Shown in pieces: positions 4,588 through 60,115 of a DNA stretch of 64,000 bases (the stretch's first letter is position 1; each line of letters begins with the position of its first letter). The notes under the pieces are model-generated. The model had not been told where the DNA came from and ran no database searches. It was given only the letters and a program-made list of their open reading frames with translations. The position numbers and the translations under genes are program-made. This DNA comes from a virus (taxonomy: Duplodnaviria > Heunggongvirae > Uroviricota > Caudoviricetes), in the IMG/VR virus record IMGVR_UViG_3300031414_000001, positions 304,437 through 368,436 of that record, one strand, 5' to 3'.

Positions 4588-5775
4588 TTATTCTTCATCG
4601 GGTTCATCAGTTCCCGATTCATCTTGTTCAGATGAAGCTGGTGCATCAGTACCCTCTGTCATAAATCCACTAAAAGTGGGCATATATTGAATTGGGTTAA
4701 TGAACCGTGGCTGTACCATTCGTGGTGCTACACGTGCTTCGACCATTTCAGCCATAGCCTGATTGATTGCTGCCATTGCTGATTGTGGATCAGCATTTGG
4801 AGCTTCACCACTACTATCAGCATTTGCTTGTACTGGTGGCGGATCGATAACGTCAGCAAACTCTACGTTGAAATCTGCGTCACCCTGACTTTCATCAGTA
4901 CCAGTAATGTGACGATACGCTTCACGCTGGACACGTTTAGCTTCGAAGCTTAAACGTTCTGGATACTGAGCAACTTCTTCTGGTGTGTTCTCCAGGCAGC
5001 GACCCATGATCCAATCAACATATCCGTTCTGGTTCAAACGAGGATGTGATTTCATCAGAGTCAGCATTTCGTTCCAGGTTGGATAGTCATTCGCACGACC
5101 AGTAACGCGACGGAACTTACGCAGCCAGATAGTGAAAGAACGCTGACCATCATCACACGGCTGACCAGACATGATACGTTGTTCAGTAATTACTGTATCG
5201 TAATAGTCCGGTACTGGCTGCTGAAGATCTTCCAGTGCTTCACGATTCAAATAACGCATACTGCGAGATTGCATAATGAAGCGACGGAACAACCCATCCT
5301 TATAGAACAGGAATTCACGAAGTACATCGGAATCACGAGACTGAAGGAAACGATCAAAGAAGCGGCTATAGCTAATTTGATTTTCGAACTTCTCCAGGAA
5401 CTCAGGAGTAATACACAACTGCTGGTGAGCATGATCCAGATACAGATGTGCGGCGTTTTTAGTCAGGAATTCCAGACTATACTGTTTATCATTACACCAA
5501 ATATCGGTATCCAGATGGAAACGGGTACGTGATACTTGCTTGCGAGTACTGATAACGAATTCCAACGCAGGTTCATCCATTACGCCAAGGATTGAACCCC
5601 AATCAACCCAATCCGCGATTGTGCGGCGTGAAGCATAGTTCACACGAGCGAGGAAATTCAAATCATTGAAGTCCTCAACGAATTCGCTCGGATCGATATG
5701 ATGCCAAGCGACACGGCGAAGTTCAGCGATAGTCAGATCACGTAAACTTGTCTTTTCAGACGTTACTGTTAACAT
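4588..5775 (-). CDS. hypothetical protein, paralog family
   Basis: ORF; QPCDDGQ..TWNEML motif, acidic tail. Confidence 0.8.
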   Translation of the reverse strand: MLTVTSEKTSLRDLTIAELRRVAWHHIDPSEFVEDFNDLNFLARVNYASRRTIADWVDWGSILGVMDEPALEFVISTRKQVSRTRFHLDTDIWCNDKQYSLEFLTKNAAHLYLDHAHQQLCITPEFLEKFENQISYSRFFDRFLQSRDSDVLREFLFYKDGLFRRFIMQSRSMRYLNREALEDLQQPVPDYYDTVITEQRIMSGQPCDDGQRSFTIWLRKFRRVTGRANDYPTWNEMLTLMKSHPRLNQNGYVDWIMGRCLENTPEEVAQYPERLSFEAKRVQREAYRHITGTDESQGDADFNVEFADVIDPPPVQANADSSGEAPNADPQSAMAAINQAMAEMVEARVAPRMVQPRFINPIQYMPTFSGFMTEGTDAPASSEQDESGTDEPDEE

Positions 5776-7268: not shown

Positions 7269-7694
7269 CTAATTTGAACAGTATTGTACAGAACGGTGAT
7301 CACCATTACATTCAATCGCAACACCAACCGACAATGAATGTTCAGCACTTTCAATAGTCATGTAGTTGAAGTTTCGATCCGATTGTAATGAAACCGTACA
7401 TTTAGAATATACTTCTTTACGGTCAATCACGAAAGGTTTAACACTGTCAATAGTAATAATACCATCAACGCAATTATACTCATGCCTGAAATTAGCATGG
7501 TATACTGCTTTAAAATTATGACGAAGTACATTCTGTACATTCGCACAATGAGGATCAGTTTCAATCTTATCCAGTACTGCCTGGTAGTTTTCAGTACTCA
7601 GGTCATAGCGTTTCTGAATAAGAGTTCCCCATGATGTTTCTACACCATCAATAAAGATTTGAAGAAAACCACGAGCTAACGTAAAAGTTAACAT
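7269..7694 (-). CDS. hypothetical protein
   Basis: ORF with RBS. Confidence 0.75.
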   Translation of the reverse strand: MLTFTLARGFLQIFIDGVETSWGTLIQKRYDLSTENYQAVLDKIETDPHCANVQNVLRHNFKAVYHANFRHEYNCVDGIITIDSVKPFVIDRKEVYSKCTVSLQSDRNFNYMTIESAEHSLSVGVAIECNGDHRSVQYCSN

Positions 7695-8165: not shown

Positions 8166-8426
8166 TTACCTCAGTTGTGAATCCTTTGACCCGCGTCGAT
8201 TGTAACTTTCTTTAAAAGTACTTTCATGCGTTGTCTGACACTTAATACAGTACTTAACACCTTTCAATGCTAAGCGACGTTTTTCAGGAATTTCATTTCC
8301 ACAATCCAGGCAGTACATTTCCGATTCACCTTGCGGCAATTGAGAACGAGCAAAGTCGATCCCATTATCTAATGTAGCCTGAATTGTTTCCTGAAAGTTA
8401 TCTACTGAACCAAAACCACTTGCCAT
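8166..8426 (-). CDS. TraR/DksA C4-type zinc finger protein
   Basis: CLDCGNEIPEKRRLALKGVKYCIKCQ; N-terminal GFGSVD..QETI. Confidence 0.9.
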   Translation of the reverse strand: MASGFGSVDNFQETIQATLDNGIDFARSQLPQGESEMYCLDCGNEIPEKRRLALKGVKYCIKCQTTHESTFKESYNRRGSKDSQLR

Positions 8427-8437
8427 GATTCTCCACT

Positions 8438-8788
8438 TTAATAATAGTTATCATTATCGTATAGTTCAATCATACCAGGTTCATAAATGAACCCCATTTT
8501 CTCTAAGATATTGATTAATTTTTCAATATCAAAAAGTGAAGTACAATCTGAACCATTGGGATGAATAGCACATATTACACTATTACAATCTACAATGGTA
8601 TAACCAAAATCATTTTCACCTTCAGTGAAACCGACTGATTGATATGTTACACAATCAATAAGTTCGTTATTTTTTTCCCAATGATATTTTGGGACAAAGG
8701 CTAAACTGTTAAATTCAAATTCACCATCTCCTTTGAGAACATCGAACAGAATTTGCGTTTCATTTATATTAACATCTAAGATTGACAT
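8438..8788 (-). CDS. hypothetical protein
   Basis: ORF. Confidence 0.7.
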   Translation of the reverse strand: MSILDVNINETQILFDVLKGDGEFEFNSLAFVPKYHWEKNNELIDCVTYQSVGFTEGENDFGYTIVDCNSVICAIHPNGSDCTSLFDIEKLINILEKMGFIYEPGMIELYDNDNYY

Positions 8789-9481: not shown

Positions 9482-9733
9482 TCAATCGCCATTCATGAAT
9501 TGAATTGCCATTGTGTCACCTACTATACCGCCACCAAACGCACTACACATCGCTATCGAGCAATCATCGTCCTGTTCAGCTTTGGCTTTCTCTAAACGCT
9601 TCTGCTCTGCCTGGATTTGACTATATGGCGTTACCCTTGCTGGTTCTGGCTTAGGCTCATGGATAGAAATCAACAGAATTTCACCAGCAAAGAATAAAAC
9701 TACAAGTGCAAAAGCAATACAGAATTGTTTCAT
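9482..9733 (-). CDS. small membrane protein
   Basis: N-terminal hydrophobic helix. Confidence 0.7.
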   Translation of the reverse strand: MKQFCIAFALVVLFFAGEILLISIHEPKPEPARVTPYSQIQAEQKRLEKAKAEQDDDCSIAMCSAFGGGIVGDTMAIQFMNGD

Positions 9734-9742
9734 AATTGTTCC

Positions 9743-10105
9743 TTAGATAAGTACTGAATTATCGAACACACAAACACCGTTCTCAAATACATTCTTACCA
9801 TCGCTAACCATGTAACGGGAAGTATTGGTTACAGTATCAATCAATAGAAGAATACTATTCTTCGTGTATTGTGATTTGTAAGTAATAGCGATAGCAGTAC
9901 CGCTAACTTGTTCACCAGCATTGTAGTACTTCTCAGCACCGAATACAAATGAACCATCATTAGTGTTCGCCTGTACATGCGTCACAGATGGTTTAGTACC
10001 TTCTTTGATACAGTTCAGATTATATACGCCAGGTGAAGGATTAACTTCAGCAGTACTGAAGAATGAAGCACCCAGCAGGGCAATACCTAAAAGTAACTTT
10101 CTCAT
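9743..10105 (-). CDS. secreted/periplasmic hypothetical protein
   Basis: signal-peptide-like MRKLLLGIALLGASFFSTA. Confidence 0.7.
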   Translation of the reverse strand: MRKLLLGIALLGASFFSTAEVNPSPGVYNLNCIKEGTKPSVTHVQANTNDGSFVFGAEKYYNAGEQVSGTAIAITYKSQYTKNSILLLIDTVTNTSRYMVSDGKNVFENGVCVFDNSVLI

Positions 10106-10148
10106 AATAGTTTCCAAAAGAAAGTGGGGCAATATTTCCCCACTGTTA

Positions 10149-10856
10149 TTAACATGAACAGGTAAAGAAGGAACCGCGATCACGGTCGTCCGTAGTACGT
10201 CCACGAACAATATCATAGTGGTTCCAGAACTCGTCTGAAACATATTCACCTTCCAGCAGTCCACCATAGCACAGGTAATCGTGATAACCTTGTACCCAAC
10301 GATCTGCGTAATCCATCAGTACATCATAGTCAATACCGAGATTGTCGGCATAGTCGTTGATCCATTGAATGGATGCTTGTTCAGTACTAGCACGTTTTTG
10401 TGCTTTCAACAGTTCAGTATTAACTGGTTCTGCTACAGTACTAACAGTGTTGTTCTGAGCCAGGCGTTTCTGAATTTCCAGCATCAGTTCTTCACTACTC
10501 AGTTCAGCAATAGATTTCTCTTTAACTGAACTTGGGAAGTCTGGATGTTCCCAAACATGAGCCAGAGAGGTAATCTGACGAGGATATACCACGAGCCAGA
10601 ATTTCTCACCTTTCTGTACTTTCTCAGTCAGGAATGGATCAACGATACCAACAGCTTTGATGTACTTGTTGAAATCTGAACCATATGCTTTACCATCTTC
10701 ACCGATACCGATGTTAGAACCAACGGTAAGATCTTCACCTGCTTCCACTGGTTCAACACCTAAGTGAATAGCATCGCGACGTTCTTCGCGAGTATGAATA
10801 GTACCGAGAGTTTCCAGAGCATCAGTTGCTACTGAACGTTTATCTTTATGAGACAT
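10149..10856 (-). CDS. hypothetical phage protein
   Basis: ORF; C-terminal FFTCSC. Confidence 0.8.
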   Translation of the reverse strand: MSHKDKRSVATDALETLGTIHTREERRDAIHLGVEPVEAGEDLTVGSNIGIGEDGKAYGSDFNKYIKAVGIVDPFLTEKVQKGEKFWLVVYPRQITSLAHVWEHPDFPSSVKEKSIAELSSEELMLEIQKRLAQNNTVSTVAEPVNTELLKAQKRASTEQASIQWINDYADNLGIDYDVLMDYADRWVQGYHDYLCYGGLLEGEYVSDEFWNHYDIVRGRTTDDRDRGSFFTCSC

Positions 10857-36541: not shown

Positions 36542-36660
36542 AGTATGTTCCTTTTGGATAGTAATTAATTTAGTGTTTTGTTCTGAATTAACTTTATCCG
36601 GTGGACCAGTACTGAATTTCTATAGCATCATAAGATTTACCTTTTGTTTGTTTATGTTAG

Positions 36661-49760: not shown

Positions 49761-49829
49761 TTCTGTACCCTCATTGATTAAGAGATAGTACTATATCATA
49801 CCGCTTCGTTCCCGTCAAGGAAAATTTAG

Positions 49830-49906
49830 TGCAAGGGGATGGACTCGAACCATCGACACGGAGTTATACTAAGATAATCTTGCTCTACCGTCTGAGCTAC
49901 CCTTGC
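49830..49906 (-). pseudogene. tRNA with aberrant enlarged anticodon arm (TAG-like loop)
   Basis: perfect acceptor, D and T arms; 21 nt instead of 17 in the anticodon arm. Confidence 0.65.
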
Positions 49907-55828: not shown

Positions 55829-55918
55829 TGGTGATCCCGGCTGGATTCGAACCAGCGATGTGTCATTAACTGTATTCAATTATGAGTTGAGTGCCTTCGG
55901 CCTCTAGGCAACGGGACC
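55829..55918 (-). tRNA. tRNA(CAU) with 18-nt variable arm
   Basis: acceptor GGTCCCG/CGGGATC-ACCA, loop CTCATAA. Confidence 0.8.
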
Positions 55919-56473: not shown

Positions 56474-56580
56474 ATAGTGTTTGGTGAGAAAGGTTCAGGC
56501 TACCTTGAATAGAATACAGGACTTAAGTGCAAGTTGCTGAACTCTTACACACCCTCATTTCATCGGTTCTTTCTCATTTG

Positions 56581-56653
56581 TGGCTCATACCAGATTCGAA
56601 CTGGTGTGGACAGAGATTTAGAGTCTCCCGCTACGCCTCTCAGCTAATGAGCC
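56581..56653 (-). tRNA. amber suppressor tRNA (anticodon CUA)
   Basis: intact cloverleaf GGCTCAT/ATGAGCC, GGAGA-CT-CTA-AA-TCTCT, canonical T arm. Confidence 0.92.
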
Positions 56654-56737
56654 ATTCATTCATTTGATACGTTTATTATACCAGAGTTTTCGAAGTCGTT
56701 CCAGCTTTTTTTCAAAAATTTTCACGACTTCAATCAC

Positions 56738-59160: not shown

Positions 59161-59207
59161 AAGGATGTTACCTTAAAAAAAGCACTCCCGAAGAAGTGCT
59201 GTTTTTG

Positions 59208-59774
59208 TTATTTAGGTAAAGAGTTTAAGTACCTCTTACCCGCCTGGATAAGTTTCTTCTTTTTGATTTTAAAAGAAGTACTATCCTGTCCACCAAACAT
59301 TGTACAGTTCGCAAGGATTTCAGCCCAAGCAGTTATATACAGAGTAGGTGCTAAAGGATCAGTCCAGATAGTATCAAAGTCTTCTGACTTAGCCATATGG
59401 AATGTCATATCTTTACGCATCAATTCTGAAATAACTGATTCTTCAGGAAATAGGTGCATCCACACATCAGCACTAACATTAGCGTGGTCGGGGAAGTGAA
59501 CCTTTCCTTCGTCATCAACAGTACGACACAATGGTTTACCACAATCATGATATTCTTGATAACGCAGTACAATATCATCTGGCAGAATCTTATCTTTGAT
59601 TTTGCCATATACTTCAAGAAGTACAGGATCGCCCTATCCAGTATCTAATTCAGAGATCAGTACTTTATACTGTTCCTGAACCATAAGACCATGTGCGTGA
59701 ACACTAAGACCTTTCATCTGTTCGGTAGTCTGCATTACATGAAGTAGTTCTTCGAAAGTGTTAGGATAAATCAT
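59208..59774 (-). CDS. HD-domain phosphohydrolase-like protein with in-frame TAG (codon 47)
   Basis: ATG 59774 overlaps upstream stop; VHAHG...TAG(59634-59636)...YHDCGKP...HFPDHA..S. Confidence 0.75.
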
Positions 59775-60115
59775 TTAGCACCTCCGCGAAACAATTGAAA
59801 TTTCTTGAAGATACTACGCTGTTCAGCGGTTACTGGAGCACTAGCAAAGGCAGTAAAGCCATAATCCCAATCAGGTTCATGGAACTGGACAAATCCAATA
59901 CCAGAATCTTTGAGTTCATCATATGCTTTTTGTAACTTATGTTTATTCTTACATGAGATAACAATCAGAGAACTAGTCTCAGTACTGTTATTTTCGAAGG
60001 CCAAGCCGCTTTCATAAGCTGCGTGGTTTGATTGTACCACAATTTGTTCTAACGGTAAGTCCGTGCGAACAAATACGTAGATCCAAGTTTTTTCATTCTA
60101 GTGAGCCATTTTCAT
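59771..60115 (-). CDS. PTH2-like peptidyl-tRNA hydrolase with in-frame TAG (codon 6)
   Basis: GAGGAA-ATG AAA ATG GCT CAC TAG AAT...WIYVFVRTDL...VQSNHA...FHEPD..TA. Confidence 0.75.

Follow-up and report, generated by a model that had tools for sequence, protein, structure and literature searches.

The 64,000-nt stretch of DNA analysed here (the window; bases 304437-368436 of the 370,971-bp record of a GAP32-like jumbo phage) carries a two-gene operon, encoding a PTH2-like and an HD-like protein, in which each gene is interrupted by an in-frame TAG. We consider it probable that translation of the operon is gated by these UAG codons and that they are most likely read by the phage's own tRNA(CUA). 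Since most of the 79 related loci keep the arrangement, it looks, judging from the sequences, like a natural gene-specific translational switch. The initial annotation of this DNA had proposed a suppressor-gated operon rather than a decaying one, and that proposal is supported by the selection on both genes, the conservation of the stops, the linkage to the tRNA and a joint change of stop codon and anticodon to TGA and UCA.

The closest deposited relatives of the phage are Erwinia phage Kaldavass and Xanthomonas phage XbC2, followed by Cronobacter phage GAP32 and Pectobacterium phage CBB (Mimasvirus) and, at a third rank, by Serratia phage BF, the Erwinia pEa_SNUABM phages and the Yersinia fHe-Yen9 phages (Eneladusvirus). 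A fragment of the HD protein (P0007), 90% identical to that of the window, is annotated on a contig of 371,314 bp that is deposited as part of a Salmonella enterica assembly, so that a close relative of the phage sits inside a bacterial genome record.

Organization of the operon and the requirement for read-through

The features of the operon and of the regions compared with it are listed in Table 1. On the minus strand, the start region of the PTH2-like gene reads GAGGAA, six bases and then ATG GCT CAC TAG AAT GAA AAA ACT TGG. Both TAGs lie where the initial annotation had placed them, and both minus-strand frames run on past them. For the start of the PTH2-like gene, its GAGGAA and its TAG hold, but its choice of ATG 60115, which would make the TAG codon 6, does not. 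This ATG is not conserved: Kaldavass has ATA in its place, and GAP32 lacks it. We therefore put the start at ATG 60107-60109, which gives a leader M-A-H-TAG and makes the TAG codon 4. We agree that the ATG at 60094-60096 is out of frame with the gene. The HD-like gene starts at 59774 and is coupled to the PTH2-like gene through an ATGA overlap, with its TAG between the H26-A-H28 and H76-D77 motifs, again as described before. Table-11 calls split both genes, as the earlier ORF calling had done, and the two genes are annotated as split or truncated in every deposited relative inspected.

Table 1. Positions of the operon, the tRNA(CUA) and the comparable elements in related loci.
Feature	Position	Strand	Remarks
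Shine-Dalgarno-like GAGGAA	60116..60121	-	6 nt ahead of ATG 60109; sequence reading
PTH2-like gene	59771..60109	-	112 codons; start M-A-H-TAG-N-E-K-T-W; stop TGA 59771-59773
In-frame TAG, codon 4 of the PTH2-like gene	60098..60100	-	next base A
HD-like gene	59208..59774	-	188 codons; ATGA overlap with the PTH2-like stop; end TAA 59208-59210
In-frame TAG, codon 47 of the HD-like gene	59634..59636	-	from translation
Intrinsic-terminator-like hairpin and T-run	59181..59200	-	directly 3' of the HD stop; closes the two-gene unit
tRNA(CUA)	56580..56653	-	ARAGORN; class I, discriminator A73, no encoded CCA
Extended -10-like element TGGTATAAT	56675..56683	-	~21 nt upstream of the tRNA(CUA) 5' end; sequence reading
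Atypical CUA elements near putatively gated genes	L040:9423-9500; L043:~5690-5770; L062:5721-5793; L082:~9530-9610; L083:~7540-7620
Putatively TGA-gated genes and tRNA(UCA) region of L042	L042:7067-7279, 8283-8720, 9940-10600

Were the PTH2-like gene read from its first table-11 start, the protein would lack strand 1 together with the invariant R17 and D19, and the window has no canonical in-frame start between the PTH2-like TAG and the conserved strand. Without read-through, the HD gene is cut between H28 and H76-D77, and its next in-frame start lies beyond the HD motif. Because the truncated starts lose invariant residues, read-through is needed for intact proteins. Both TAGs occupy variable, unstructured spots; in the predicted model of the HD-like protein, the TAG falls in a loop between helices 25-44 and 50-62.

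Conservation and selection across the in-frame stops

The 902-nt two-gene unit of the window was aligned with that of nine relatives, giving 10 Mimasvirus/Eneladusvirus-type genomes. No indel occurs in the unit across the 10 genomes and both TAGs are invariant, a conservation that spans two phage genera. Synonymous sites are nearly saturated, with dS reaching 0.5-1.2, and at such distances the invariance of both TAGs is not a matter of chance. The median dN/dS in these genomes is 0.10 for PTH2-like codons 5-112, 0.08 for HD codons 1-46 and 0.08 for HD codons 48-188. With dN/dS of about 0.1 on either side of each TAG, neither gene is decaying. The codon-4 TAG of the PTH2-like gene is also kept in contigs L004-L008, and TAGs are retained in metagenome relatives down to 66-77% protein identity.

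The initial annotation had turned to homologues for two points, the conservation of the TAGs and the residue found in their place. Conservation is borne out by the invariance in the 10 genomes; the residue, by contrast, varies (I, K, Q, V, T or E, and L at another site). The full-length proteins in databases that have Q at the TAG sites are correctly translated solely under TAG=Q (code 15), and this Q stems from the choice of code 15 by the gene caller.

Contigs from independent public runs cover both TAG places, and among the differences listed for these contigs none is at either TAG; all four runs consist of contigs. One contig (X1) spans the whole stretch with 4 differences. An RNA run (X15) yielded one 253-nt contig, which is not proof of transcription.

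Predicted folds of the two products

The model of the PTH2-like protein (pLDDT 94) has the alpha/beta fold of Pth2 and matches 2ZV3, 1Q7S, 3ERJ, 1WN2 and 1XTY over its full length, with a TM-score of 0.70-0.75 and an rmsd of 2.5-3.9 A to solved archaeal and human Pth2 structures. Its score against Pfam PF01981 is below threshold (17.4 bits against a gathering cut-off of 23, E=0.005), while 63 of 104 PTH2-like relatives match PF01981 at E<=0.01 and the family profile, from a family of 971 representative clusters, matches the PDB Pth 24bt with E=3.5e-7. R17, D19, Q28 and H31 are conserved, and E80, which is invariant, falls at the position of the DAG-motif Asp in the alignment. The protein shares with archaeal and eukaryotic Pth2 the fold and the N-terminal R-x-D-L...Q..HA motif, and its residue at the DAG site is likewise acidic; it differs from them in a Gly/Lys loop that is two residues shorter, in the sub-threshold Pfam score and in the in-frame UAG. 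On the strength of the model, it looks like a divergent Pth2-type ester hydrolase.

The best matches of the HD-like model (pLDDT 96) are the HD regions of class II CC-/A-adding tRNA nucleotidyltransferases, with TM-scores of 0.60-0.66. The E-values are marginal, both for 3WFR (TM 0.66, E=2e-3) and for residues 253-438 of O67911 (E=2.7e-4); the match of the family profile to the Aquifex aeolicus enzyme 3WFO, in which the HDxGKP...F.(D/E)H motif is aligned, is likewise marginal (E=0.007). H28, H76, D77, H97 and D122 are invariant in 108 HD sequences and H126 is nearly so, which is the pattern of the metal ligands. Pfam HD (PF01966) has no match in the protein of the window, and 15 of the 108 relatives match it at E<=0.01, the best with 3e-4. 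The motif and the helical fold are those of the HD domain of the A. aeolicus CC-adding enzyme (3WFO-3WFS); unlike class II nucleotidyltransferases, the 188-aa protein is a stand-alone HD domain without a polymerase head. E. coli Cca contains an HD phosphohydrolase. The phage also encodes a class II tRNA nucleotidyltransferase outside the window (G000:C1:172085-172447, minus strand; open frame of 386 aa), in which no HD.GK motif is present. The only CCA-enzyme-type HD domain found in the phage is that of the stand-alone gene with the in-frame amber codon.

Given a Pth2 fold in one product and the HD fold of a CCA enzyme in the other, both are probably tRNA 3'-end enzymes, a prediction that follows from the models. 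The Pfam scores of the two proteins, both under the curated cut-offs, count against our reading.

A tRNA(CUA) downstream of the operon

Among the 28 tRNA genes of a minus-strand island in the window, one has the anticodon CUA. Such a tRNA had been claimed for this genome before, and both ARAGORN and Rfam find it. It scores 53.7 bits against RF00005 (threshold 29) and shows the features of a suppressor tRNA, namely a cloverleaf, a 7-nt anticodon loop (CUCUAAA), U33 and the anticodon CUA. The gene lies 2.6 kb downstream of the operon on the same strand; the TGGTATAAT element ahead of it is not listed by the consensus scan. The label 'Pyl' given by ARAGORN derives from the anticodon alone, and TIGR02367 (PylS synthetase) finds nothing in the phage genome. 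By E. coli rules, A73 with U35 would favour Lys or Gln.

The tRNA(CUA) is 98.8% identical in Kaldavass and XbC2. It is not closely similar to any of the 27 other tRNAs of the phage and has no match in E. coli genomes. Compared with the tRNA(CUA) of L012, L014, L015 and L016, closely related phages with HD proteins about 90% identical, its acceptor, D and T arms differ strongly, and the CBB/BF-type tRNA(CUA) has two acceptor-stem mismatches. With divergence this strong and mismatches in the acceptor stem, the function of the tRNA is not guaranteed. As the TAG sites are variable and unstructured and the acceptor stems differ between close relatives, the identity of the inserted residue seems unimportant, which suggests that read-through matters and the residue does not.

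Two other tRNA genes of the window are unusual. The one at 49829-49906 (minus strand) has an 8-nt anticodon loop (UC-UUAG-UA) and is left unassigned by ARAGORN; its acceptor, D and T arms are kept in Kaldavass and XbC2, where the anticodon arm differs and the tRNA is called Lys and Glu. The other, at 55829-55918 (minus strand), is a tRNA(CAU) of 90 nt whose variable region carries a long insertion; its Rfam score is 49.3 bits.

In-frame stops in related loci

IMG/VR was searched with an alignment of HD homologues, and the best 80 relatives gave 79 distinct loci with 36-96% identity, mostly on contigs of 100-500 kb. A profile of the PTH2-like family detects an adjacent, co-oriented PTH2-like gene in 75 of the 79 loci, without exception on the same strand. 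Of these 75 loci, 64 have an in-frame TAG at the N-terminus of this gene or next to it, typically as M-x(1-4)-TAG. The HD gene has a TAG in 58 of the 79 loci, at no fewer than four different positions. The group of the window has it at codon 47, another group behind DLPP and L078 behind QHGE; codon 2-6 is the most common place across the loci. Four further loci (L065, L077, L080 and L088) encode PTH2-HD fusions in one frame, with a short leader M-T-TAG or similar. Altogether, at least one gene with an in-frame stop is found in 76 of the 79 loci, its position varying by lineage and falling mostly at codon 2-6; no in-frame stop was seen in L056, L061 and L070. The arrangement extends to very distantly related phages. 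In 73 of 116 cases the putative gating TAG is followed by A, and in E. coli an A after TAG favours suppression.

There is no wholesale recoding in these loci. Table 11 by itself gives an ORF cover of 0.7-0.95, and reading TAG as sense gains no more than reading TGA as sense.

Linkage and co-variation of the suppressor tRNA

ARAGORN finds 59 tRNA(CUA) genes in 51 of the 79 loci. All 59 share the strand of the HD gene; their median distance from it is 1.34 kb, and 50 lie no more than 3 kb away. CUA is the commonest anticodon in the loci (59 of 574 tRNAs), and among the 40 loci with at least 3 tRNAs the tRNA(CUA) is the one nearest to the HD gene in 23, where 5.7 are expected. Nine more loci have CUA tRNA-like elements that ARAGORN missed, with a CUCUAAA or UUCUAAA loop, a normal T arm and an aberrant D arm; the element of L062 reaches 25.4 bits with the Rfam tRNA model, which is under the threshold.

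The locus L042 uses a different stop codon. Its PTH2-like gene begins M-E-S-TGA-V-T-Q and its HD gene M-T-W-S-TGA-V-T-L (TGA at codon 4 or 5); two ordinary class I tRNA(UCA) lie 1 kb upstream of these genes, and the locus lacks a tRNA(CUA). In L042 the stop codon and the anticodon have switched jointly, which is the strongest single piece of evidence for the gate.

Two observations from these loci count against the gate. In about 18 of the 79, a suppressor is missing from the 10 kb around the genes. The complete genome G001 (357,873 bp, locus L013) keeps both TAGs, and no tRNA(CUA) is present among the 30 of its 32 tRNA hits that were checked; a tRNA(CCG) occupies the syntenic slot of the suppressor, and pattern searches of this genome for a tRNA(CUA), one restrictive and one looser, returned nothing convincing.

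Genetic code of the rest of the genome

TAG terminates 3 of the 92 ORFs of at least 100 aa in the window, in line with the earlier remark that its clear genes almost never stop at TAG, and 16 of 476 in the genome. A genome-wide codon-usage scan for in-frame TAGs flanked by coding sequence recovers the HD gene, and a separate genome scan for early TAGs recovers the PTH2-like gene. The codon-model scan of the whole genome found no other convincing in-frame TAG that needs read-through. Outside the operon, the genome keeps to the standard code.

Three further candidates were rejected. The stretch 263642-264406 of the genome consists of two genes that share one frame, and window 49791 lies in a promoter-like stretch. 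A TAG at window 36620-36622 (minus strand), preceded by M-M-L, shares the frame of a 108-aa gene and stands 26 codons ahead of its ATG; it is probably there by chance, as this gene has its own AAGGAA ribosome-binding site, and the PHROG family of the gene starts at the downstream ATG.

If the suppressor works, the 16 TAG stops of the phage and the TAG stops of the host should be read through too, which we count against the gate. ORFs that end in TAG have no closer back-up stop than the others (median 8.5 versus 9 codons).

Alternative explanations

Some of the observations that speak against the gate would suit a throttle that is independent of the phage tRNA, in which near-cognate read-through or a host suppressor keeps possibly harmful enzymes scarce and the tRNA(CUA) serves otherwise. 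Under it, G001 could keep both TAGs with no detectable tRNA(CUA), some 18 of 79 loci could do without a suppressor within 10 kb, and the poor conservation of the tRNA(CUA) between close relatives would be of no consequence. We nevertheless regard it as quite unlikely, since it leaves unaccounted for the co-orientation of 59 out of 59 tRNA(CUA) genes at a median of 1.3 kb and the tRNA(UCA) that accompanies the switch to TGA in L042, and since a weak ribosome-binding site would be a simpler way to limit expression. It is very improbable that the whole phage uses genetic code 15, as crAss-like or Lak phages do, and that the two genes are merely its visible cases. The suppressor tRNA(CUA), the rarity of TAG stops (16 of 476) and the use of TAG=Q by automatic callers on short contigs of relatives would agree with such a code, but the in-frame TAG is confined to two genes, with no other gene in the genome-wide scan needing read-through; 16 long ORFs (at least 100 aa) still end in TAG, and TAG as sense adds no more ORF cover than TGA as sense in the related loci.

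A bypass that needs no suppressor is equally hard to credit. A ribosome that slips by -1 on the run of six A's behind the out-of-frame ATG 60096 (ATG AAA AAA C) would, in the window, enter the conserved frame, and re-initiation after the tripeptide is another conceivable route; yet L007 and L017 are without that ATG, L016 and L017 break the A-run, and the TAG is kept in all of them. Moreover, no canonical in-frame start lies between the PTH2-like TAG and the conserved strand, and the HD TAG at codon 47 has no such route at all. Least probable is the view that both genes are pseudogenes inactivated by nonsense mutations, or products of sequencing errors, which the fragmentation of both genes by table-11 annotation in every deposited relative inspected might seem to favour. 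Against it stand the dN/dS of 0.08-0.10 either side of the TAGs and the 0 indels in 902 nt among 10 genomes; relaxed selection in the flanking codons, which the initial annotation had named as a sign that would speak for decay, is not borne out by these data. Sequencing error, its other concern, is countered by identical TAGs in many independent assemblies and by contigs from independent runs, among whose listed differences none touches either TAG.

Discussion

In the reading that we prefer, a UAG gate read by the phage's tRNA(CUA), this tRNA would be transcribed, CCA-tailed and charged by a host enzyme, and would then compete with RF1 at the two UAGs. Ribosomes that start at ATG 60109 would meet the UAG at codon 4. 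If RF1 wins there, a tripeptide would be released and nothing useful made; if RF1 loses to charged tRNA(CUA), the PTH2-like protein would be made in full. A failed attempt would be cheap, because the early stop yields a tripeptide only. Owing to the ATGA coupling and to the second UAG at codon 47, the output of the HD gene should depend more steeply on suppression.

As to the purpose of the gate, we tentatively favour a sensor loop that may tie the dose of the two tRNA-end enzymes to the ratio of charged suppressor to RF1, a homeostat comparable to prfB. A timer or checkpoint, which would delay both enzymes until the phage tRNAs work, ranks second as a possible purpose; the clean-up of side effects of read-through is a rather unlikely one, and the remaining probability falls to something else. 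The tRNA and the two genes could possibly form a self-contained sensor of working charged tRNA that sets the dose of both enzymes, with stop and anticodon co-evolving from UAG/CUA to UGA/UCA, although we hold this more comprehensive proposal to be doubtful. The gene for RF2, prfB, is autoregulated via an early in-frame UGA that is passed by a +1 frameshift, and its product recognises that very stop. The PTH2-HD operon resembles it in that an early in-frame stop in a translation-related gene would act as a sensor of the decoding of that stop. It differs from prfB in that a dedicated tRNA would pass the stop and in that no link of the products to UAG decoding is apparent; there is no frameshift site.

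Phages that use code 15, such as the crAss-like and Lak phages, encode Sup-CUA tRNAs (PMC10879173, PMC13037316, bioRxiv 10.1101/2022.06.29.495998). Common to those phages and the one described here are a phage tRNA(CUA) for in-frame TAGs in phage genes and a host on the standard code. Unlike in code-15 phages, the TAGs are confined to two adjacent genes beside the tRNA; other genes continue to use TAG as their stop, and a block of recoded late genes is missing. Suppressor tRNAs for which no target was found have been described in the standard-code jumbo phages XacN1 (PMC5852040), Atu_ph07 (PMC6102473) and phiKp24 (PMC8386662); the authors of the XacN1 study searched only behind annotated TAG stops (PMC5852040). 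The phage of the window has a jumbo-phage tRNA array with a suppressor in common with these three and, in contrast to them, two specific candidate target genes. PTH2 genes have been noted in jumbo phages without mention of stops (PMC7824862). In a synthetic feed-forward loop built on a suppressor tRNA, the output needs both mRNA and suppressor tRNA and an early stop removes leak (PMC7969014); compared with such engineered amber switches, the putative gate described here is natural and conserved. Phage suppressor tRNAs and genome-wide TAG recoding are thus known already. A published description of a gene-specific amber gate on PTH2 or HD genes was not found in the literature searched, a body of work that excludes most subscription journals.

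For annotation, the analysis means that the deposited relatives inspected contain split genes and that the Q at the TAG sites of database proteins is a code-15 artefact. The orphan suppressor tRNAs of standard-code jumbo phages would find their explanation in a conserved pair of target genes next to the tRNA. If true, the gate would be a natural one-codon, tRNA-dependent switch of the kind that synthetic biologists build by hand, and its link to two predicted tRNA 3'-end enzymes points to a way of controlling tRNA repair or turnover in infection that is still unexplored.
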